Part shown: one piece after another, positions 12,387 through 46,867 of the stretch
Position numbering within the stretch: the stretch's first letter is position 1
Layout of the letters: the number at the start of each line of letters is the position of its first letter
Origin: a virus
Direction: 5' to 3' (one strand)
DNA: 64,000 bases
IMG/VR virus record: IMGVR_UViG_3300017971_000013
Location: 1 to 64,000 of that record
The notes under the pieces: generated by a model
What the model was told of the DNA's origin: nothing
The model's database searches: none
Seen by the model: the letters and a program-made list of their open reading frames with translations, nothing else
Position numbers and translations under genes: made by a program

Positions 12387-13793
12387 ATGTCTAGAACTCG
12401 AGACAAACGACGGTTAAGACTGACAAACTTCTTACATGTTCCCACTGACTTAATAGAAGAAGATGAACTGCGTAAGAAACTGTTGTTTTTTAACCCATTA
12501 GCCGCAGCTAACATGTATGGCGGTAACAAGAAGAATGTAGATCCTTACTACTCTTTATTCTATGGTTATGATGAAGATGGTAACTATCTTGTGCCGCGAA
12601 CTATGTTTCCAGAATATCCACGCGATGATTCTTTTGTTCACTACATCATGGACTCTGTAAGGTTGCCACATGGCAACTTTAAACACCCACCTCTTTATCC
12701 TCATCAAAAAGAAGCTTTCAGAGCCTTGGTATCTGCAGATCCAAATCATGGGAAATCTGTCATAAGCGGTTGTGGTTCGGGAAAGACCATAATCGCTTTT
12801 GCATATATGAGATGGATTTCATGTCGTACGATAATTATCGTAGATACAGCTGTGTTGCGTGATCAGTGGATAAACGAACTTGTTACTCATTGTCGTGTAC
12901 ACATGGAGAACATAGGAATTGTTCAGGATAGAAAATTTGAGGTGGGTAAACAATTCCATGTGACTATAGCCATGTTACAGACTCTCAGGAATAGAGCTTT
13001 GACTGACAGGTTCTGGCGTAATTTTGGTCTGACAATCTATGAAGAAGGTCATCAATTTGGTGCAGAGACCTATGCAAAAGTGATGCCGCAATCCTTAGGT
13101 AAAAGATTATTACTAACTGCTACTTACAATAGACAAGATCAGAAAGATAAGGTTTATAGGTTACATGTTGGAGATCCTTGTTATAAGAATCTAGATACCC
13201 CTCATGTTCCTGACATTTGGGTGTACCCAACAGGCCTCTCTTTTATGCGTACTAATCTTGGCGCCCAGATTAGGAGATTCGAACCTTTTGGTAATTTCCA
13301 AAGAGAGAATGTTAAATCTAGAATGGCGCGAAGTCTTCCTCGTAATAAGAGATTAATAGAATTGTTAGATCGGGCATATGTGGCAGGTAGAGAGATTCTG
13401 TTTCTATCTGATAGAATCCAACAGCTTAGGTTTTTGTATGAACACTTTAAATCAAAAGCCTATGATTGTGCGATGATTTTAGGTAAGGCTCATGGTGGGA
13501 TGTCTGCTGAAGAAGCTAAGAATTATCGCATGATATTTGCCATCAAACATATTTGCGACAAAGGCTTCAATAAACGGTCACTAGATATTCTATTTGAAGG
13601 TCTGTTTTATACTTCGCCAAACTCTATACAGCAGAGGTTCGGGCGAATACTTCGTTCTTATGATGGTAAGAAGAAACCAATCGTTGTTCTTTTTGAAGAT
13701 GATGACGAGTTGTTTGTCAAACAGACAAAGAAAATGGTACAAACAGCTAAGAGGTTGTGGCCAGAATTGAAGGTACGACGATTTCAAGGATGA
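12387..13793 (+). CDS. Superfamily 2 DNA helicase (UvsW/XPB-like)
   Basis: GCGSGKT Walker A, EEGH Walker B variant, LTAT, QRFGRILR motif VI. Confidence 0.85.
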   Translation: MSRTRDKRRLRLTNFLHVPTDLIEEDELRKKLLFFNPLAAANMYGGNKKNVDPYYSLFYGYDEDGNYLVPRTMFPEYPRDDSFVHYIMDSVRLPHGNFKHPPLYPHQKEAFRALVSADPNHGKSVISGCGSGKTIIAFAYMRWISCRTIIIVDTAVLRDQWINELVTHCRVHMENIGIVQDRKFEVGKQFHVTIAMLQTLRNRALTDRFWRNFGLTIYEEGHQFGAETYAKVMPQSLGKRLLLTATYNRQDQKDKVYRLHVGDPCYKNLDTPHVPDIWVYPTGLSFMRTNLGAQIRRFEPFGNFQRENVKSRMARSLPRNKRLIELLDRAYVAGREILFLSDRIQQLRFLYEHFKSKAYDCAMILGKAHGGMSAEEAKNYRMIFAIKHICDKGFNKRSLDILFEGLFYTSPNSIQQRFGRILRSYDGKKKPIVVLFEDDDELFVKQTKKMVQTAKRLWPELKVRRFQG

Positions 13794-17976: not shown

Positions 17977-20900
17977 ATGCTAGGCCAGCTTCTTTACGAC
18001 CTTTCTACTTCTTCTCCGGCACAACGTAACGATTTCGTGGAGGATTGTGAGCGCCGTTATGGTGTTTATAAAAAAGGATCTTTTTACAGACAAGATATTG
18101 AATTTGTACTTTCGTTTATTGTCGTAGAGTGGCTGAAGAATATTAGAAAAAGGCATCTAACAGCTTGTTTTGTCGGAGATACGTTTGGAGCACCCGCTAC
18201 TTTTTTCAAGAGAACTATGGAAGAAATAGGCGAGGTAAGCCTAGATATCTTTGGTTTCTCTTCAGCTAAAAGAGACAGTTTAAGAGATGTTGTTAGACAT
18301 GCATTACCAACATTCCGGTACACAAGCTGTGATCTTTGGGGTGAAGATTATAACAAGCTTCTAAACTACTTCTCTTCTATAGAGAATCTGGAATCTTTTT
18401 GTTTTTCTGCAGGCATATTTATTGAGCCGAAAAAACATCAGCGCCCGTGGTTCTTTGGAAAAGAAGGTGTGCGTGAGTGCAATCTTCATACCTTGAGCCC
18501 AACGCTTCATGCAGATTTCGTACTTGCATCTTTGGAAATGCTGTTACGTACGGTTAGAGGGCCTCTTGTTCTTTTCACAAGAAAGCCTTTTGAAGACTAC
18601 TTTGAAGATTATCAAGATTTCTTCACAGGCTACGTGAAGAGGTTATTTTTGAAAGTGTTTCATTGTAATGTTGCCAATGGGCAACTTTCGATTTTGATGC
18701 CTAAGCCAAATAATTTCTATGGCAAGGTCCCACCTCTTGTTTCAGCCATACAAACCTATGATAGAAACAAAGACTTTCAAAAAGCTTATGACACTATTCA
18801 ACTGAAACCCAAGGCTAATTTTCTACTAAAAGACGCTTTGGGTGCTTTTAGTAAGTCTATAATAAAGAGAGACTTTTGTGATTATGTAATTTCTCGGCTG
18901 CCTGATTCAAGCGAACACACTATTCGGCTGTTTGAGCAACATGAAAAAGATCCTATTGAGATTCAACAGGAAAAATTCAACGAGCGTTATACTCAGCTTA
19001 AGAAGGTAAGAACACGTAATATTATTAAAGAGTGTGATCGTAAACCACACTATGTTCGCGTGTACCTTTCTCGTAATGCTACTTCGTTGTCTTTTTCGTG
19101 CGGTAAGAGCGCGTATCCTGTGGTTATGAATTGGTTGTCTATGCAGGATAATGTTCGTTTCCCTAATGGACATGCTGTTAACACTTTTGTTATGCAGTTG
19201 AGACTTATTAATATTTACCATGATGAAACTTTTCTAGAGAGATTCGAGGCCGCAATGGTTTCTTATGGAATAGAGACGGTCGTTGATTATGCAGCCGAAA
19301 GGTTCCTTGAGAAATATCGTCGCGCAATGAAGAGAAAGACAGCGCCTTTTGAGCAATGGGTAAGACATACAAAGATTAATGGCGAAGAGACAATCGAGTG
19401 GAAAGAACACCACAAGGAAGATGGCAAGCGCAACGCTGACCCTGCTGTCTATCAGATGTTTAGGCAGCGTTTGAGAGAAGAGTTTCCTGACCCAGGCACA
19501 ACGTGGAAATATCTTTATGATGACGCTGCGCGCATGGCTATGACAGGTTGTGGGTTTGGGGGCCATAAGATGGCGCTCGGAAAAACACGTTTGGCCATTA
19601 TGTTGTGTTATGCGTTTGGTGGTAATCATAACCTGTTTGTTGTCGAAGCTAAGACTGTTAGCGAGTGGATGAAGGAGATCACTAAGCTTGGGCTGGAAGA
19701 CAAGGTTCGTCAGATTACATGCGAAGATGATCTTGATAATCTTTCATTTATTAACATAATTCCGTATACCAGACTCTGGCGCGAGCTGAGACCGGAACAT
19801 GTTCGCTATCGTGTAACTATTCTTTCTTCTGGTGAGGTTATGCCTGTAAGTAAGGATGAGTACGATATGCTCCGCGCTTCTCAGATGTCGAATGGTAAAA
19901 TGTTGCCTAAAAGAGAGCGGCAATTCGATTTTGAAAAGAAGATCCCTTTTAAACACACCTTCTGTGGTTGGTTATCTCGCAGAGGTAATATTTGTGTAGC
20001 GGTTGCAGATGAGGTACACAGAGCCTCTAATGATTCTAGCCAAGGGATTTCGTGGCAACAGTTGAAGGCCAAGCATAAATATGGAATGTCAGGTACTCTT
20101 GTCAGCAATAAGCCAAAAGCAATGCTGAGGCTTGATACCTCTGTTGCTGGGGAATGTACTCCTCTTAATCCTTACAGCTATAAACAACCTTATTATGATG
20201 TAAGTACAAAAGAATATAGCGGCTCTGGGTTTAAGAGGTTTGAAGAGCGGTTTGTCCAGTTTGTAACTGTGTACCAAAATGGTAAGCAGATAACTAAGGA
20301 AATACCTGCAGCAGCAGACAAAGAGGCATGGTGGGATTTGCACGATCCCTTGATTCTTAGGCGACGGCCAGAAGAACCTGAAGTTAATCGTGTCGTTGAT
20401 TTTTCAACCGCAGATGTCCAAGAGGTGATTGTTCGCGCAGACAAGAAGCATGTGTTGTTCTATAAGAAGTGGCTTATGGAATATGGAACATGGTTTTTGG
20501 AGAAATTATCGGGCGGAAAGAAAGCTGCGTTTGCTTCTACCAACCAGATTCTTGGACATCTTTCTAAGCTACGTCTTGTGTCAACTGTGCCAGGTTGCGA
20601 TAAAGTCTCTGGCCAAGATATTGACCCATCGTTTAGGTGGCCAGGAGGCAAGACTAAACTTCAGAATCTTATTCTTGACGATGTTAATAATATGGTTGAG
20701 AAACAAGGTTTGAAGTTCATCATTTTTTCTTCTCACCCGGATTTTTTAAAGGAGATGCACACTTACTTCACTGAAGAATATGGAATTGAGGTAGGTCTTT
20801 TTACAGGTGATATTCCTATCGATAAGAGAATTAAAACCCTGAATCATTTTAGAGATGAAGATACGATGCAGGGTTTATTAATGAGTACAGGTGCGGCGAA

Positions 20901-21279
20901 TACTGCTTACAATATTCCAGAAGCCAGCTATGTTTGGATAGCTGATTGGGACTGGGACCCTGCTAAGCTTATGCAGGCATGGCATAGAATTCTGAGAAAT
21001 GGGCAACAGTTAGAGCATCCTGTCGTGAAAATCGCTATTGTAGAGGGTACAATACAGCAATATATGAGCCAATGGGGCAAGATTAAATTAGAATCTTCGG
21101 CCGATTTGATTGATAAGCAAGATTTTGAGTTTGACCCACAAACGTGGGTAGCTTTGACTGATTTTCTCATTGCAATGATGCAGCGTGAAGGAATTCCTGG
21201 TTTTGAATCTTTTCCTGTTTCTGACAGGATTAAGAAAGCCATGGATAATAGAGAGCCGGTATTCTCGGAGGCTATGTAA
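17977..21279 (+). CDS. SNF2-family helicase with large N-terminal extension
   Basis: MALGKT, DEVH, MSGT, FSS, WDP...QAWHRILR motifs. Confidence 0.85.
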   Translation: MLGQLLYDLSTSSPAQRNDFVEDCERRYGVYKKGSFYRQDIEFVLSFIVVEWLKNIRKRHLTACFVGDTFGAPATFFKRTMEEIGEVSLDIFGFSSAKRDSLRDVVRHALPTFRYTSCDLWGEDYNKLLNYFSSIENLESFCFSAGIFIEPKKHQRPWFFGKEGVRECNLHTLSPTLHADFVLASLEMLLRTVRGPLVLFTRKPFEDYFEDYQDFFTGYVKRLFLKVFHCNVANGQLSILMPKPNNFYGKVPPLVSAIQTYDRNKDFQKAYDTIQLKPKANFLLKDALGAFSKSIIKRDFCDYVISRLPDSSEHTIRLFEQHEKDPIEIQQEKFNERYTQLKKVRTRNIIKECDRKPHYVRVYLSRNATSLSFSCGKSAYPVVMNWLSMQDNVRFPNGHAVNTFVMQLRLINIYHDETFLERFEAAMVSYGIETVVDYAAERFLEKYRRAMKRKTAPFEQWVRHTKINGEETIEWKEHHKEDGKRNADPAVYQMFRQRLREEFPDPGTTWKYLYDDAARMAMTGCGFGGHKMALGKTRLAIMLCYAFGGNHNLFVVEAKTVSEWMKEITKLGLEDKVRQITCEDDLDNLSFINIIPYTRLWRELRPEHVRYRVTILSSGEVMPVSKDEYDMLRASQMSNGKMLPKRERQFDFEKKIPFKHTFCGWLSRRGNICVAVADEVHRASNDSSQGISWQQLKAKHKYGMSGTLVSNKPKAMLRLDTSVAGECTPLNPYSYKQPYYDVSTKEYSGSGFKRFEERFVQFVTVYQNGKQITKEIPAAADKEAWWDLHDPLILRRRPEEPEVNRVVDFSTADVQEVIVRADKKHVLFYKKWLMEYGTWFLEKLSGGKKAAFASTNQILGHLSKLRLVSTVPGCDKVSGQDIDPSFRWPGGKTKLQNLILDDVNNMVEKQGLKFIIFSSHPDFLKEMHTYFTEEYGIEVGLFTGDIPIDKRIKTLNHFRDEDTMQGLLMSTGAANTAYNIPEASYVWIADWDWDPAKLMQAWHRILRNGQQLEHPVVKIAIVEGTIQQYMSQWGKIKLESSADLIDKQDFEFDPQTWVALTDFLIAMMQREGIPGFESFPVSDRIKKAMDNREPVFSEAM

Positions 21280-28420: not shown

Positions 28421-28483
28421 AGCAACATACTACGGACGGTATTTAGAACAAGGACTGTGAAAAACATTCTTACAGGAGAGGTT

Positions 28484-29626
28484 ATGTCAGAACCTATTTT
28501 GGTGCCCGTTAAAAATATCAAGGTCGTATCTAATGTGCGAAAAGAGATTGGTGATCTTACTGAATTGATGGATTCTATCAAACAGGTTGGTTTACTCCAG
28601 CCTATTGGCGTTTCTAAAAAGGGAAAAGGTTATACCCTTGAGTTTGGTAATCGTCGCTTGGCTGCGTATAAAGAGCTTGGTGAGAAGAAGATCCCTGTAA
28701 TTGTTGTCAAGGCTGGCAAGAAGAAGACAGACCGTGTCGTGAAGCAAGTCATTGAGAATATGCAGCGCACGGATATGACTGGTATCGATGAAGCTAGGGC
28801 CATCAGGGATTTGATGGAGAATACTGGTTGGACACAGGAGAAGGTTGCAAAAGCTCTGGGTCTATCTAAGTTTGTTGTCAACAAAAGACTGGCTCTACTT
28901 AAGAAACTACCAGAAGATGTACAGGAAGCTGTTAGGGATAGGAAAATTTCATTATCTCACGCAAAGGCCATCGCAAGCGCAGACTTAGAACCTACTGAGC
29001 AGATTGCTTTGTTGGGCGTTGCAAAGGAGCTGTCTGGCAATGAGTTCGAGGCGTTCGTCAAAGAGGGCACTTCTTCTGGGGGGTTTCCGCAAGCGAGCGG
29101 GAAGATCCAGTACGAAGAAATTGAGCGCCCTCGTCTGTGCAAGTTCTCCGATTTCAAGAAAAGACTCAAGGCTCTCGACAAGGAAAAAAGAGAGCATGAA
29201 AAAGGGATCGCCAGACTAACTAAGAAACTAGAGAAAGAGAAATCAAAGAAGCGTAAGGTTGACCAGGAGAAGATCTCTGAATTCCGTAAAGAGATCAATC
29301 AGTCGAAGCGTGAGCTTGAGGTTCTCTCTAGAATTGAAGAGTGGGCGGAAGGTTGCTTTATTATGAAGATGGTCAAGCGACCTATTCAAGAGAATAAGAG
29401 CGACAATGAAAAAACAAAACCTCGCAAAAACAGGGTGGAAGAAAAGGCTCCAGCTAAGAAGAAGAAAGCTAGCAAAGGAGCAGGAGATGGGAAAGCTTCC
29501 AGAACTAAGAAGACTTCCTCGAAAAAGCAAAGTACAAAGCGTGCATCAGCCAGCGGTAAAGGGAATAGCAAGAAAACAACGAAGAGGTCTGGTAAGAAAC
29601 TAGGTCTCAAGAAGAGTAAGAAATGA
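28484..29626 (+). CDS. parB: ParB/Spo0J-family CTPase with HTH and Lys-rich C-terminal tail
   Basis: SIKQVGLLQPI, FGNRRLAA arginine patch, IENMQRTDM, WTQEKVAKALGLS HTH, ISLSHA. Confidence 0.9.
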   Translation: MSEPILVPVKNIKVVSNVRKEIGDLTELMDSIKQVGLLQPIGVSKKGKGYTLEFGNRRLAAYKELGEKKIPVIVVKAGKKKTDRVVKQVIENMQRTDMTGIDEARAIRDLMENTGWTQEKVAKALGLSKFVVNKRLALLKKLPEDVQEAVRDRKISLSHAKAIASADLEPTEQIALLGVAKELSGNEFEAFVKEGTSSGGFPQASGKIQYEEIERPRLCKFSDFKKRLKALDKEKREHEKGIARLTKKLEKEKSKKRKVDQEKISEFRKEINQSKRELEVLSRIEEWAEGCFIMKMVKRPIQENKSDNEKTKPRKNRVEEKAPAKKKKASKGAGDGKASRTKKTSSKKQSTKRASASGKGNSKKTTKRSGKKLGLKKSKK

Positions 29627-31398: not shown

Positions 31399-31784
31399 GT
31401 GACGATTTTTTCAAAGGTAAGAAGACTATCTCTCCTGAGTTTGCGGCTGCTCGTGCTGATATCGCTCTACAGCAGATTCCACCAGAGACTGTGAAACAAC
31501 AGATGCGGCGCAATAAGGTGATTAAATCAGCCGTTGTGGACTTGTTGTGTAATCGTGTGCAACCAAACACGAAGGATGGCATTCTCTTCGCATACTTTGA
31601 TGAGTTTGAAGACTTAAAGAAGGATCCTAGATTTAAGCCTCTTAGCAGCTATATCGATAAATTGGTTAGAAGAGATAAGAATGGGATGGCTATTGGATAT
31701 GTCAGACCTATTCTAGCAAATGAAGCGGGCATCATCAGATTGAGTCCGACTGAAGGGAAGATTGTGGTTCTCAAGGAGAAGTGA
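31395..31784 (+). CDS. Hypothetical protein
   Basis: Coupled operon ORF. Confidence 0.55.
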   Translation: MSDDFFKGKKTISPEFAAARADIALQQIPPETVKQQMRRNKVIKSAVVDLLCNRVQPNTKDGILFAYFDEFEDLKKDPRFKPLSSYIDKLVRRDKNGMAIGYVRPILANEAGIIRLSPTEGKIVVLKEK

Positions 31785-32542
31785 TGAAGATTGTGAAAGA
31801 GAATGCGATATTCAAATCCATTCAAGGGGAAGGATCTCGTATCGGTGAACCAGCCTACTTTCTTAGATTATGGGGCTGTTCTTTAGGTTGTGATTGGTGC
31901 GACACTAAAGAATCTTGGGTCGATGAAGATAATTATATTGAGGTTGATCCTTATCAGTTAGCTGAAGACTTAAAAGATGCGATGAATGATGTGCCTAGGT
32001 TGGTGATAACTGGAGGAGAACCTTTTGATCAGATTGAAGATTTAATTTCGCTAATCTACAAGATTAATCAGATGGCTTCAAGACGAACTTTTCTGGAACG
32101 GCCATTAATCTCAGTAGAGACAGCATCAAGATTCTTCAGTCCTTACAAGTCTGAAGTGAAAAGCAGAATAGCTAGTGAGAAAGAAAAGGGTAGGCACGGT
32201 TTTTCTACGTTCGAGATGCCGTATTACCCTAATCTTATTACTTTTTCTCCAAAATTATGGGCATTTACATCAGACGACATCAAATGTCACCTGCAAGAAT
32301 TGTACGATTTAGGTTCCTATTGCTTGGAGAAAGAGGTAAAGATTGTTGTTTTTGATGATGCAGATCTTAGACGAGCTGAAAATCTTCTCGATTATGTGAG
32401 TTCAAACTTTGGTTTTCCAGAACACCGGTTGATTATTCAAATTGGCAGCGATTTAGACGAAGAACAAGAAAAGTGTCTGCTTGAAGCCGATGCGAAATAT
32501 AGGCGGTTACCTCAATTGCAGACCTTGTGGGGCATAATGTGA
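31781..32542 (+). CDS. queE: 7-carboxy-7-deazaguanine synthase (radical SAM)
   Basis: SIQGEG...FLRLWGCSLGCDWCDT, ITGGEP, ET, SPK, PQLQ. Confidence 0.9.
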   Translation: MMKIVKENAIFKSIQGEGSRIGEPAYFLRLWGCSLGCDWCDTKESWVDEDNYIEVDPYQLAEDLKDAMNDVPRLVITGGEPFDQIEDLISLIYKINQMASRRTFLERPLISVETASRFFSPYKSEVKSRIASEKEKGRHGFSTFEMPYYPNLITFSPKLWAFTSDDIKCHLQELYDLGSYCLEKEVKIVVFDDADLRRAENLLDYVSSNFGFPEHRLIIQIGSDLDEEQEKCLLEADAKYRRLPQLQTLWGIM

Positions 32543-32564: not shown

Positions 32565-33086
32565 ATGTCGCAACTAGAGGAAGTGACGAAGCTACTTGTC
32601 GAATCTCTCATAGAGAAGTATCAGTTGACGATAGAAGAGCAGGCATCTTTAGATCTTAAAGAGACTTCGCGCCGAGTGGCGCATGCCTTTGAAGAAATGC
32701 TGAGCGGCTACGAACTCAATAATGGGAATGGTGCTTACACTACATTCCCAGTTAGAGAGACAGAAGATCATAATGCGGTGTGCGCAAAAGGCATATCTTT
32801 TTCGAGTGTTTGTTCCCACCATCTTCTTCCTTTTATAGGTGAGATGGAAATTTACTATGTTCCTAGCAGTCGAGTTATTGGGTTGAGTAAGCTTTCTCGT
32901 ATTGTTAGAAAGTATTCTCAAAGACTACAATTACAAGAGAATCTGACGAATCAAGTGGCTGATGCCATTGTAGAGATACTGGAACCCAAGGCTTTATCTG
33001 TTACTTCTAAATGCGTACATTCGTGCGTAGCATGCAGAGGTGTGTCAGATCCTAACATGGTAATTGAAGTCGCTGTTTCTAGGTAG
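32565..33086 (+). CDS. folE: GTP cyclohydrolase I
   Basis: CSHHLLPF, IGLSKLSR, RLQLQE, HSCVACRGV; C-terminus short. Confidence 0.9.
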   Translation: MSQLEEVTKLLVESLIEKYQLTIEEQASLDLKETSRRVAHAFEEMLSGYELNNGNGAYTTFPVRETEDHNAVCAKGISFSSVCSHHLLPFIGEMEIYYVPSSRVIGLSKLSRIVRKYSQRLQLQENLTNQVADAIVEILEPKALSVTSKCVHSCVACRGVSDPNMVIEVAVSR

Positions 33087-33100
33087 AAACGCCAAAAAAG

Positions 33101-33270
33101 GTGTCATTTTTTTGACACTTGGCCTCTTGTGACACCTTGTCACATTAGAGCGGACTAGGCCACGCCTAAAACCGCTCTCAAACGGCCGTAAATGCCCGAA
33201 AATGCTCGACAAATGGTAATTGTGGTCAATTGTCTCCACCTCGGAACGTGAATCGTGACACCTTGTCACG
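33101..33270. promoter_or_regulatory. Putative enhancer (UAS) palindromes for the sigma54 promoter
   Basis: GTGACACCTTGTCAC at 33129 and 33255; GTGTCA-T6-TGACAC at 33101. Confidence 0.5.
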
Positions 33271-33301
33271 TTCTAACAGCAAACAAGACAGAAAAAACTT
33301 G

Positions 33302-33348
33302 TAACTTGTTGAAATCATTCACTTTTCAAAACTGGCATGCATCCTGCA
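33302..33348 (+). promoter_or_regulatory. IHF-like site plus sigma54 (-24/-12) promoter
   Basis: TAACTTGTTGAAA (reverse TTTCAA-N4-TTA), then CTGGCATGCATCCTGCA with exact GG-N10-GC spacing. Confidence 0.65.
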
Positions 33349-33448
33349 CTACCTATTAATCCGCCTAGGTGTATGCACCTTAGGCGAGCTTTTCTCCCCA
33401 TAGCGCGGGAAAGAAAAAAGTGGCGAATTTCAGCATACTAAAAAACGG

Positions 33449-33501
33449 GCGGTATTCAGAGCATGGGATTGATTCCTGTGTTTTGGGTACCGCTTTTTTT
33501 T
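33449..33501 (+). terminator. Intrinsic terminator (~20-bp G.U-rich stem)
   Basis: GCGGTATTCAGAGCATGGGA / TCCTGTGTTTTGGGTACCGC followed by T8. Confidence 0.75.
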
Positions 33502-33619
33502 GTGTTTGTGCTGTGCGCTACTCGTTGACAAAAGGAGAGTGTCGTATTCTGGTATCCCAGAAAGGCCATGCATTGATTACCCGTCCCGTGTGTCTAACCA
33601 GGATGGGTTTTCTTTTTGG

Positions 33620-34080
33620 TACGGGGATTTCAGGGGCGTTCCGGCTAACAGCTGTTGAGCGCAAGGAAAGTGCTGCTTGCTACGAAATGAAGGTGGAAAC
33701 ACCGAAACAGACCCTTACGCTGTGGAGTCCTTTAAACGGGATGTTGAAGCGGCATAACTCGCACGGTGAGATGCGAGGGTAAAGCAGAGTAGCCATTTTG
33801 GCAGGGACCATACGGGGTTCCTTGCGAGGGCTTTCCTTAGGGCGACATTCCGACATAAGAGCAAAGCGAAACACTCTTTTTTGAGGGAAAAAGTTTGGCC
33901 GGATTTATCCGGTTCTCTCAAAGGTGGGTCCTATCCTAGCAATTCTAGGGAGGTTAAAAACAAATACCGAAAGACGACACTCTCACCCTAGCCGTATTGG
34001 GTGTCGCGATTAGGGGTTAGGACCAATCGAGATAAAAGAATGGACGGCCCGAAAAGAACGGTGTTTCACAGGGGTTCGAA
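33620..34080 (+). ncRNA. Candidate large structured ncRNA (family unassigned, boundaries approximate)
   Basis: Many hairpins and long-range pairings; no credible protein ORF; higher GC than flanks. Confidence 0.55.
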
Positions 34081-34081
34081 A

Positions 34082-34143
34082 GCAACGGTCTGGTGACAAG
34101 GTGTATTCCCCATACACTTTTTAGGTTCGATTCCTAACGTTGC
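34082..34143 (+). ncRNA. tRNA-like mini-element
   Basis: GCAACG/CGTTGC acceptor-like stem, GTC-TGGT-GAC mini D-arm, GGTGTAT/ATACACT arm, TTAGG-TTCGATT-CCTAA T-arm. Confidence 0.6.
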
Positions 34144-34187
34144 AACTTAGCAACGTTAAAATTCAACACACAAAAAGGGAGGGTATC

Positions 34188-34505
34188 ATGTATATTGTGG
34201 TTTCTCATTGTGGTTATTCGTGGTCGTTTGTTCGTATGAACGAAGAGGAGGCTAGAAAAGAGTATCGAAACGTCGATAGGGAATACAGAGACTACAAGAG
34301 GGCACAAAGAAGGGCTGAGAATCTCACTGCTAAAATGCAGTGGGCCGAAGACTCCCCATCAAAAGAGAAGACAAGGAAAACCGGTACAAAAACTAGGTCT
34401 AGAACCAGGTCCGGTAAGGTTCGTATCTCCTTTAAGAGAGGAGGAAAAAGGAAGAAACTGAGAGTTGTCAGCAAAGGTACAACAGCAAGCTGCGGTTTGT
34501 GGTAA
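34188..34505 (+). CDS. Hypothetical basic protein
   Basis: GGGAGG RBS. Confidence 0.55.
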   Translation: MYIVVSHCGYSWSFVRMNEEEARKEYRNVDREYRDYKRAQRRAENLTAKMQWAEDSPSKEKTRKTGTKTRSRTRSGKVRISFKRGGKRKKLRVVSKGTTASCGLW

Positions 34506-34724: not shown

Positions 34725-34775
34725 ACGAGTAGGCTGAAAGCAGCTGTTAGTGGGGTGCAATTCCCTGCTACTCGT
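34725..34775 (+). repeat. 51-nt structured direct repeat, copy 1 (tRNA-like minihelix)
   Basis: ACGAGTA-GGCTGAAAGCAGCT-..GTGGGG TGCAATT CCCTGC-TACTCGT. Confidence 0.75.
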
Positions 34776-34813: not shown

Positions 34814-35191
34814 ATGAGCCACAAGAAACAGTATGTTGTTCTTAATTCGGACGAGATTGCGGTTACTTTGTACTTTAGATTGACCACTGTGGTTGGAAAT
34901 GTAAATGAGATGATGGAGGCCGTCAGAGATGGGGTGTTTGACTATGAGTTTAAAACTATCCTTGCCGCTGGGAATATTCCTGCTGTGGTGTTTGAGGGAG
35001 ATAACGGGACGATGGTTTTTGAGTTGTGTGGTTCGAATGGCTACAGCGAAAGGTTCCAGATTGTAGAGGCTATGGTCAGAGGGTTGTGGAGTCTTCACAT
35101 CGGCGGGAACTTTAAGATGGACTTTTCAGCCTTTGAAACTAGCAGCGAGCGTGTTACGAAGCATGTGTTGTGTAATAGACGAGTAGGCTGA
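34814..35191 (+). CDS. Hypothetical protein flanked by direct repeats
   Basis: AGGAG RBS. Confidence 0.6.
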   Translation: MSHKKQYVVLNSDEIAVTLYFRLTTVVGNVNEMMEAVRDGVFDYEFKTILAAGNIPAVVFEGDNGTMVFELCGSNGYSERFQIVEAMVRGLWSLHIGGNFKMDFSAFETSSERVTKHVLCNRRVG

Positions 35192-35229
35192 AAGCAGCCG
35201 TCAACGGGGTGCAATTCCCCGTTACTCGT
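35179..35229 (+). repeat. 51-nt structured direct repeat, copy 2
   Basis: ACGAGTA-GGCTGAAAGCAGCC-..ACGGGG TGCAATT CCCCGT-TACTCGT; compensatory changes relative to copy 1. Confidence 0.75.
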
Positions 35230-36016: not shown

Positions 36017-36099
36017 GCGGGCGTGGTGGAATGGTAGACACAAGAGACTTAAAATCTCTCGGCCGAAAGGCCATGCGGGTTCAAGTCCCGCCGCCCGTA
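36017..36099 (+). tRNA. tRNA-Leu (anticodon UAA), CCA not encoded
   Basis: GCGGGCG/CGCCCGT acceptor, AGAGA-CTTAAAA-TCTCT anticodon arm, long variable arm, GGTTCAAGTCC T-arm. Confidence 0.95.
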
Positions 36100-36140
36100 C
36101 TTCTGAGGAAATGGTCCTCATGTTTGCCCACGGAGGGAGT

Positions 36141-42322: not shown

Positions 42323-44425
42323 ATGACTAGGTACTTTTTTGCAGGAGGGGACTCTAAGCCCGCAATTAAGTGTATGCTCGCATGTGACGTCAAAAATATT
42401 CTGTTTAGCTTCTTCTATATACAGAAAAAGCGGCAGAAGAATTTTGATGCCCTTGTAAGTCAGCTGACAGAACTCAAGGAAAAAGGTGGTTATACTTTTA
42501 TCTTAGATTCTGGTGGCTTTACTTATAAAGATGTAGCGGGCCGAGGGTTTCAAACTGTTAGAAGTGAAGCAGGCGCTGTACGGACAAAGAAGCTAGATCC
42601 ATATGCGTATTTAGAGGAATACACCAAATTTCTTATACAATATGGACACTTGTTTGATGTCTGTGCAGAGTTTGAACCGGACGAAGTGTTCGGCGGCGTA
42701 GATATTGTAGATGAGAACAGAGAGAAGATGCTAGCCACCTTCGAGAAGCACGGTGTAGAGGTTAACCTCATGCCTGTGTTTGATTCTTTCATAAGGGATC
42801 TAGATACGTGGGAAGAGTGGTGTGAAGATTCTAGATACAAGCATCTTGGTTTTGTGGGAAATGATATACGTCTTGCTTCTCGTCTTGTAAATAAGGCGCA
42901 TAGACACGGCAAAAAAGTACATGGTTTCGCGCAGACTAAGATTGAGGATCTTCAAAGAGCTAAGTTTGATACTGTGGATTCTACAGGATGGATTTCTGGG
43001 CAGAAATATGGAGAGGTGTTCATATTTCAACGTGGTAAATGGACCAGACTAAACGCTACCCAAAAGAATAAGCGCAAGCTTTATAAGAACTATTTCAAGG
43101 CAATTGGGATAGATTGGGACCTCATCAATAGAGATGATCCCAATGAGTTACTTAAAGCCTCATGTTTGTCCTGGAAGCGTTTGTTTGATCACTTTGAGGC
43201 TAGGTCTATATTAGAGACAGCCAGTACCACCTCCTTAAAGAGAGCAGCACCAACAAAGCCTGTTCGTGGGGTGTTGATGCAGTTAGCTGAGCTTGGTGTA
43301 GACAAAAAACCACGGGAGCGTAATGTCCCAAAGAAGACAATCAAAGTGGGGGGTAAGATACGGCTTATGTCGACGAAAGCGACAGCGTTCGACGCACAGA
43401 AGATCATTGCACGGGCGTTGGAGTTGTCGGAACTCCCTGTCGAGGAAGCCTGGGAAAAAGCCTTTGGGCGAGATGAGCAAGAAATAACTGTTGATGAGCA
43501 AGAGATGAACGCGTTGTTTAAGCCTAAAAGAGCCAGAGGGTTTAGCCCAGAATGGTATGCGTTGCTAGACCAACAACGTCAGGTAGAAGAGGCATTAGAA
43601 AAAGTCTCGGCAGACAATGAAAAAAGAAATAATAACTGGGACAAGTTCCTGGTGACTGAGCCTCTTATGTCCGAAAACGAGGTAATTTCGCAGGGTTCCA
43701 TTTTAGGTGACACTACAGACTACACAAATATTAAACAAATTCAGGGAAATACCGCAGAAATGGCGGATGGATCGCACGTTGCTAAAGACAACGTTGTTAA
43801 TAGCAACAGAGAAACTTTAGACAGTCAAAACGACCCTACAAAGCTCACATCATCGACGATTCGTAAAAAATTGTCCGTCCATGCGTGTCATACGTGCGCA
43901 GTTTCTACCGATTGCTCTTATTATCAACCTGGCTACTTGTGTTATTACAAACCAGCATTTCAAACGTTGCAAAGTCGCAATGTTAAAGATGTGATGCAGG
44001 CGTTAGAGTATATAACGGACAAGAACCTAGAGAGAACGATGCGCGCGTTTTTGATGGAAGAGATACAGATGGGGGGTCAAGTAGACCCTCAAGCATCAAA
44101 TGTGTCTCAGTTAGCTTTCGGGCAGTTAGAGAAGCTAGCTTCACTGAAACATGCAACCAGACCCGAATCTTTCAAGGTAACACTCGAAGGACAAGGTGAG
44201 TCAGCGTCTATCTTGACCCAACTTTTATCGGGCGCAAAACAGCCCGAAGAGCCAAAACAGTTAGAAGCGCAAGAGACTAATATGATAGATGTGACACCTA
44301 AGAAGAAAGAGAGAATAGAAGAACGCGCGATAAGAGAGTCAAAACAGCAAGGTAACAGACAAGATGAATATGACATTACTGAATTAGCTACGATACAGAA
44401 AATGTTTGTTCCTGATCAACAGTAG
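42323..44425 (+). CDS. DpdA/TGT-like transglycosylase fused to a C-terminal Cys4 + helical domain
   Basis: ILDSGGFT, LMPVF, VHGFAQT, TVDSTGW...KYG TGT-fold motifs; C-terminal CHTC..C..C. Confidence 0.7.
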   Translation: MTRYFFAGGDSKPAIKCMLACDVKNILFSFFYIQKKRQKNFDALVSQLTELKEKGGYTFILDSGGFTYKDVAGRGFQTVRSEAGAVRTKKLDPYAYLEEYTKFLIQYGHLFDVCAEFEPDEVFGGVDIVDENREKMLATFEKHGVEVNLMPVFDSFIRDLDTWEEWCEDSRYKHLGFVGNDIRLASRLVNKAHRHGKKVHGFAQTKIEDLQRAKFDTVDSTGWISGQKYGEVFIFQRGKWTRLNATQKNKRKLYKNYFKAIGIDWDLINRDDPNELLKASCLSWKRLFDHFEARSILETASTTSLKRAAPTKPVRGVLMQLAELGVDKKPRERNVPKKTIKVGGKIRLMSTKATAFDAQKIIARALELSELPVEEAWEKAFGRDEQEITVDEQEMNALFKPKRARGFSPEWYALLDQQRQVEEALEKVSADNEKRNNNWDKFLVTEPLMSENEVISQGSILGDTTDYTNIKQIQGNTAEMADGSHVAKDNVVNSNRETLDSQNDPTKLTSSTIRKKLSVHACHTCAVSTDCSYYQPGYLCYYKPAFQTLQSRNVKDVMQALEYITDKNLERTMRAFLMEEIQMGGQVDPQASNVSQLAFGQLEKLASLKHATRPESFKVTLEGQGESASILTQLLSGAKQPEEPKQLEAQETNMIDVTPKKKERIEERAIRESKQQGNRQDEYDITELATIQKMFVPDQQ

Positions 44426-46593: not shown

Positions 46594-46830
46594 ATGGAAT
46601 TGCTAGCTATCATCATGTTTTCGTTCCTTGGTCTGTTCGTTTCTTCTGTTGTAATTCAGAGCAACCTTGCCGTTGTCGTCGCGGCGACTAATCGTAAGAA
46701 CTATCTCGATTTCTGCGAGAATGTAGATAGCGAGCTGAAAGCTATTCATAGACAAATGTACGTAGACGAGATTGTCGCTGAAAGCGACATTTACGCGGCT
46801 GTTGATTGTTTGGGTCTGAGACTACGCTAA
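46594..46830 (+). CDS. Small membrane protein
   Basis: GGAG RBS; N-terminal TM segment. Confidence 0.55.
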   Translation: MELLAIIMFSFLGLFVSSVVIQSNLAVVVAATNRKNYLDFCENVDSELKAIHRQMYVDEIVAESDIYAAVDCLGLRLR

Positions 46831-46867
46831 AACGGTTTTAGGGCGGTTCGATTCCGCCCTTAGCGTA
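46823..46867 (+). ncRNA. tRNA-like minihelix
   Basis: TACGCTA/TAGCGTA stem stacked on AGGGCGG-TTCGATT-CCGCCCT T-arm. Confidence 0.55.

Follow-up and report, generated by a model that had tools for sequence, protein, structure and literature searches.

The present study asks what occupies a stretch of about 1.1 kb without open reading frames (33087-34187) in the genome of an uncultured phage, and whether the block enclosed in it (33620-34080) is, as an initial annotation proposed, a structured RNA of about 460 nt with several domains. The viral record is 103,595 bp long and has direct terminal repeats; its first 64 kb are the window, i.e. the whole stretch of DNA analysed here, to which positions refer unless stated otherwise. 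All long ORFs of the phage lie on the + strand, and on its 5′ side the gap is preceded by genes for a DnaB-type helicase, a family-A DNA polymerase, a RecA-like protein and a RuvC-like resolvase, as well as by those for QueE and FolE (Table 1). The QueE-like protein and FolE, taken together with the ORF at 42323-44425, would point to 7-deazaguanine as a modification in the DNA of the phage; that ORF had been read initially as a DpdA/TGT-like fusion, and a Pfam search gave no match for it. A second ORF-free stretch lies outside the window (genome positions 83593-83884, 292 nt), with a GC content of 0.50 against a genome mean of 0.427.

Table 1. Features of the ORF-less gap and its surroundings (window coordinates).
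Feature	Position	Strand	Basis or remark
ParB-like protein	28457-29626		encoded by phage
QueE-like radical-SAM protein	31781-32542	+	upstream of gap
GTP cyclohydrolase I (FolE)	32565-33086	+	directly upstream of gap
Palindrome GTGACACCTTGTCAC, two copies	33129-33143, 33255-33269		about 205 and 80 bp upstream of promoter motif
Sigma-54-type -24/-12 promoter motif CTGGCATGCATCCTGCA, GG-N10-GC	33332-33348	+	predicted start near 33360
5′ unit: 5′ hairpin, second hairpin, 20-pair hairpin (33448-33494), eight U	33359-33502	+	terminator scan; z = -6.0
Candidate RNA domain, better bounded	33535-33984	+	z = -4.8 on +, -2.3 on - (boundaries chosen after folding)
Block of the initial annotation	33620-34080	+	boundaries as first annotated
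Multi-branch sub-domain closed by AAGGAAAG/CUUUCCUU	33663-33840	+	fold; z = -3.6
Long hairpin (33877-33925) and CCUAG hairpin	33873-33953	+	fold; z = -3.5
Linker, no excess structure	33985-34081	+	z = -0.07
tRNA-like cloverleaf, 62 nt	34082-34143	+	3′ boundary of non-coding unit; conserved in L002
Degenerate copy of 20-bp palindrome, core TTGCCAnnTGGCAA	34137-34156		overlaps 3′ acceptor strand
First downstream ORF, 105 aa	34188-34505	+	strong Shine-Dalgarno; ends gap
tRNA-Leu(UAA)	36017-36100		after small ORFs; ARAGORN; Rfam at gathering

A search with the polymerase (polA) among 5.8 billion proteins returned a single relative, P0122 (57% identical), which sits on the JGI contig L002, the sole relative found in the metagenome scan. 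There was no DNA match to the phage among 50,697 phage GenBank records, and polA was at most 26% identical to anything in that collection. IMG/VR, scanned with FolE, polA, P0122 and an alignment of polA as well as with patterns for the tRNA-like element and for polA motif A, yielded no relatives, and a scan of genome contigs gave four matches, none of them a relative. On these searches the phage is an orphan, and the comparison below rests on two lineages and one homologous locus. In L002, QueE (18614-19378) and FolE (19386-19964) are followed by a gap that extends to a gene at 21116. The order QueE-FolE-gap is thus common to both phages, with a gap of 1102 nt here versus 1151 nt in L002, and the proteins flanking it are 33-44% identical between the two.

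The block is non-coding, as originally described. No ORF or conserved peptide is common to the two gaps, at a divergence at which the flanking proteins still align, and a 120-aa ORF at 33420-33782 had no match in a PHROG search. One match on the minus strand, at E = 0.001 when composition was left uncorrected, was put down to composition. A frame at 33716-33757 ending in ...FKRDVEAA-stop was considered as a tmRNA-like tag and rejected, L002 having no tag-like frame and the sequence no match to a tmRNA model; neither ARAGORN nor Rfam reported a tmRNA. The block is also GC-rich, as had been observed: its GC content is 0.50 versus 0.427 for the genome, and that of the gap body is 0.497. A cmscan against Rfam 15 gave no match over the gap, in keeping with the original statement that no family can be assigned: at gathering thresholds the only match in the whole window was the tRNA-Leu at 36017, and at E up to 10 the region 32900-34400 gave two unrelated weak matches, both outside the block. 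GOLLD (RF01998), ROOL (RF03087), Y RNA and introns had no match in the gap at E up to 10, and the Rfam scan of the L002 gap gave nothing relevant.

Immediately 3′ of the block is a tRNA-like cloverleaf, and the earlier remark that the block lies in a tRNA neighbourhood holds in the sense that it adjoins tRNA-like elements. The cloverleaf consists of a 6-bp acceptor, a 3-bp D-like stem with a UGGU loop, a 9-bp stem with a 5-nt loop and a T arm with the canonical loop UUCGAUU, and it has neither a variable region nor the 8/9 linker. The loop of the third arm is UCCCC here and AUUGC in L002, in place of a 7-nt anticodon loop. Neither ARAGORN nor Rfam (RF00005) calls a tRNA at this position; the element is not a tRNA but a tRNA mimic. 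R1, a covariance model derived solely from the window copy, finds L002 20950-21007 (58 nt) with 27 bits and E = 1.3e-5, which is its best non-self match in 86 kb on both strands. In the alignment guided by R1, pairing holds in all 43 cells, and of the 23 pairs 10 are changed on both sides, compared with 0-1 in slid controls, and none is broken. Weaker matches to R1 occur at 46808-46864 (E = 0.008), 34727-34773 (E = 2.7) and 35181-35227 (E = 3.5), between or after small genes, a placement that would fit a punctuation role; R1 also picks up the true tRNA-Leu (36018), at E = 0.008. In L002 the element tops an outer stem of about 17 bp (AAGCUUCCA.../...UGGAAGCUU, within 20925-21030) that is followed by a U run, and the non-coding RNA of that phage may terminate right after the tRNA mimic. 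The tRNA-like pattern also detected recurrent elements in unrelated viral contigs of IMG/VR (L018, L020, L041, L062, L068 and L077, and also L045, L067 and L039); these possess D-like and T arms, and ARAGORN calls no tRNA in them.

The 3′ acceptor strand of the window's mimic is overlapped by a palindrome whose hairpin competes with the acceptor stem and wins in the minimum free energy (MFE) fold once the 3′ flank is included. The palindrome core TTGCCAnnTGGCAA has 33 copies in the genome (up to 2 mismatches) and none in L002. It usually extends to AACRTTGCCAnnTGGCAACNTT; many copies precede a start codon by 20-45 nt, and others are located inside genes (examples are at 12663, 28392, 36666, 45678 and 46355 in the window and at 66351, 72823 and 90696 beyond it). 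Because the phage encodes a ParB-like protein, these copies may be ParB/Noc-type binding sites or operators.

On the 5′ side the gap carries a motif of the sigma-54 type. The sequence TGGCATGCATCCTGCA (33333-33348) follows the pattern TGGCAC-N5-TTGCW, in which exactly 10 nt separate GG from GC, with two deviations, both of which are shared by L002, where the counterpart of CTGGCATGCATCCTGCA, CTGGCATGAATCCTGCA (20353-20369), is syntenic and identical at 15 of 16 bases inside otherwise unalignable DNA. The -24/-12 pattern has one match per sequence, in the 103.6-kb genome as in L002. Since 0.64 matches per genome are expected by chance, the motif gains weight only by its conservation. At the promoter motif GC skew flips from negative to positive in both phages. 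Transcription from it would start near the position given in Table 1 and would need host sigma-54 and an enhancer-binding ATPase; no gene for an enhancer-binding protein (PF00158) was found in the phage genome. The palindrome GTGACACCTTGTCAC, with two exact copies versus 0.1 expected by chance, represents a pair of candidate enhancer-binding-protein sites, a function that we infer from the sequence. An exact 12-mer, GACAAATGGTAA, is shared by the window (33208-33219) and L002 (20259-20270), about 125 and 95 nt, respectively, before the promoter GG, and may be a protein-binding site.

The promoter motif is directly followed by a 5′ unit with a terminator-like end, and the unit is therefore possibly a separate product, a candidate sigma-54-dependent phage sRNA or attenuator of about 145 nt. 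The terminator-like segment (33448-33502) could halt most sigma-54 transcripts at about that length, before the block is reached, in which case the body would depend on read-through. L002 has no equivalent terminator, and structural alignment of the 5′ parts of the two gaps scored 77 versus 73-109 in controls.

Within the block, the local hairpins listed in the initial annotation exist as placed, namely GGTG-GAAA-CACC at 33692-33703, CTCGCA/TGCGAG at 33758/33772, GCAGGGACC/GGTTCCTTGC at 33801/33816, the long hairpin at 33880-33922 and CCTAG/CTAGG at 33935/33945. Local hairpins are in excess (z = 2.9; 32 versus 19±4.6), a level matched by one of the ten coding controls. The long-range complements that had been proposed also exist (33720-33726/34065-34071, 33927-33933/34018-34024 and 33962-33969/34059-34066), but their number is at chance level: the block has 34 long-range helices of at least 7 bp, dinucleotide shuffling gives 28.6±5.3, and 6 of the 25 shuffled sequences reach the observed number. 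The fold envisaged for the whole, with several domains in about 460 nt, long-range pairs and a pseudoknot, is likewise at chance level and has no counterpart in L002. For 33620-34080 the MFE z-score is -1.1 (+ strand) and -0.2 (- strand), and for 33600-34150 it is -0.98 and -0.73. The many G.U pairs had been taken as a sign of structure at the RNA level; this argument fails, because shuffles of the + strand are likewise low in energy and its low energy thus reflects composition. Sliding 150-nt windows within the block have z-scores of -2.3 to +1.3, which is ordinary against the local background (the surrounding 12 kb, mostly coding, with mean z -1.1, sd 1.5 and 20% of windows below -2.5).

The boundaries of the block as first annotated are off, its 3′ fifth (33985-34081) having no excess structure and the strongest helix beginning upstream of the block. 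This helix (33535-33555/33964-33984, with 21-nt arms that are 86% complementary and include 11 perfect bp) is the strongest of the long-range helices, is contained in all MFE folds and closes a better bounded candidate domain, the z-scores of which are optimistic since the boundaries were chosen after folding. Of the two sub-domains in Table 1, the one at 33663-33840 holds the GGUG-GAAA-CACC, CUCGC and GCAGGGACC hairpins. There are no repeats or iterons inside the block, and no other copy, repeat or MITE of it was found within the phage genome.

The body of the gap contrasts with its edges when the two phages are compared. Best local alignments of the body were not above shuffles, the chained local alignment of the two gaps scored 176 versus 171±8 in shuffles, and a MAFFT alignment of the gaps missed even the tRNA-like element. 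A sequence-structure aligner of the LocARNA type, written for this analysis, scored the tRNA-like pair at 105 versus 75 for the reversed control and found no shared fold between 33500-34081 and L002 20383-20950, which scored 254 versus 260-319 in five reversed or coding controls. Covariance model R2 (33873-33953) had no match in the L002 gap body and model R3 (33663-33840) no counterpart in the L002 gap, where its best match had E of about 8. The same type of model finds the tRNA-like element at E = 1.3e-5, so that the method can detect conserved structure at such divergence, although with two lineages only the absence of conservation is weakly powered. Nor was there covariation in the body, as far as one homologous locus allows. 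For the L002 gap body z is -0.7; hairpins are not in excess there, and its GC content is 0.545 versus 0.504 for the L002 genome. One seemingly shared hairpin with the loop GAAAGUGC (33661-33679 and L002 20778-20800) did not hold up: pairings next to it were inconsistent, and its alignment score fell within that of shuffles. The architecture claimed at the outset stands unproven; given the present evidence its conservation is unlikely, and the particular fold of the body is not under detectable conservation.

The size of the gap, the promoter motif and the 3′ cloverleaf are all conserved in L002, which makes it likely that the block is transcribed as a non-coding RNA, of no known family. The conserved elements at either end speak in favour of the gap being a unit of transcription whose RNA is left untranslated. 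We tentatively favour, with somewhat less than even confidence, the reading that the block belongs to a transcript driven by sigma-54, of which it forms the untranslated, fast-evolving body, and that host tRNA-processing enzymes cut this transcript at the tRNA mimic. The RNA would run from the predicted start up to the cloverleaf, a distance of about 0.72 kb here and about 0.57 kb in L002. Host RNase P on the 5′ side and RNase Z or E on the 3′ side would cut at the mimic, and cleavage would separate the non-coding RNA from the mRNAs of the small genes downstream, like tRNA-like punctuation elsewhere. With its local hairpins and the helix 33535/33984, the body would be a leader, precursor or spacer rather than an ornate RNA of the ribonucleoprotein type.

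An alternative explanation could be a structured RNA of a new family, comprising about 33535-33984 and perhaps acting jointly with the 3′ tRNA mimic, that would need its fold for its function and would be too diverged from its L002 counterpart for two-sequence methods. This would account for the lower z-score of that domain on the + strand than on the - strand (-4.8 versus -2.3), for the z-scores of the two sub-domains (-3.6 and -3.5) and the excess of local hairpins (z = 2.9), for the presence of GNRA-type loops, for a gap body that in each phage is richer in GC than the genome and for a gap kept at about 1.1 kb in both of these tightly packed genomes. It is nonetheless unlikely, given domain boundaries that were set after folding, sliding z-scores that are ordinary, an L002 body with neither a low z-score nor a hairpin excess, a real pair that aligns below all five controls, models R2 and R3 that find nothing in the L002 gap, and the absence of an Rfam match at E up to 10. 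A decayed gene remnant or a neutral, functionless spacer would be consistent with a body unconserved between the two phages and with the weak thermodynamic signal across the block as first delimited. We consider it quite improbable, however, since the gap length is kept in two otherwise densely coding genomes, both bodies are richer in GC than their genomes, contrary to what is typical of intergenic phage DNA in decay, and the gap is bracketed by conserved functional elements.

It is also conceivable that the locus acts as DNA, either as a segment that would invert or recombine between the 21-bp inverted repeats at 33535 and 33984 or as a region that binds protein or is associated with replication, next to the replication module. 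The inverted repeats enclose 408 bp, the gap follows genes for helicase, polA, RecA, ParB and RuvC, and a palindrome family is spread across the genome. Such a role is nevertheless very improbable: chance is estimated to give about 0.1 perfect 11-bp complements in 1.1 kb, L002 has no equivalent repeat pair, no recombinase was identified next to 33535-33984, and the block has neither internal repeats or iterons nor another copy in the genome.

The transcript that we tentatively favour would have partial parallels in known systems. Like GOLLD and ROOL, the block is a non-coding phage stretch of several hundred nt adjoining tRNA or tRNA-like genes, but those RNAs are defined by conserved blocks and covarying helices, neither of which is seen here against L002. 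Phage T4 produces two stable RNAs, species 1 and 2, of 120-140 nt from its tRNA region, which are processed by tRNA-maturation enzymes; these too are phage non-coding RNAs beside tRNA genes, although by description their size and promoter type differ. MALAT1 and MEN-beta with their mascRNA-type elements (RF01684) and the t-elements of plant mitochondria offer the same arrangement: a compact tRNA look-alike, bearing acceptor and T arms, comes directly after a long stretch of non-coding sequence, and cuts by tRNA-processing enzymes at this point could set the RNA ends. Those systems are eukaryotic or organellar, whereas the present element is from a bacteriophage, and with RF01684 the L002 element scores 15.7 bits (gathering score 42.5) and the window element has no match. 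A stronger form of the parallel, in which the locus encodes a phage long non-coding RNA under host sigma-54 and enhancer control, with its 3′ end made by RNase P at the tRNA mimic as a counterpart of MALAT1-mascRNA, and in which 33535-33984 is a new, fast-evolving structured class with a role in infection, seems to us decidedly unlikely.

The combination of a non-coding RNA, a tRNA-like module and a sigma-54-type promoter is also found in the YrlA Y RNAs, which belong to the sigma-54/RtcR-controlled rsr-yrlBA-rtcBA operon and occur in phages as well (PMC4201824, PMC7790460). Some YrlA RNAs are made RNase P substrates by a 7-bp acceptor stem (PMC4201824). The topology of YrlA, however, in which an acceptor-like stem is closed by a loop (PMC4201824), differs from that of the present element, which ends at the acceptor stem. 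The phage has no Ro/TROVE or RtcB gene, in addition to the lack of a Y RNA match in the gap noted above.

For the claim of an ornate 460-nt RNA the present analysis is mainly corrective, and the features that bear evidence are the flanking promoter motif and the tRNA mimic. If the transcript is real, it would be unusual in that a lytic-type phage links a non-coding RNA to the sigma-54/enhancer system of its host, and its tRNA mimic would define RNA ends, providing a testable model for the punctuation of long transcripts in uncultured phages.
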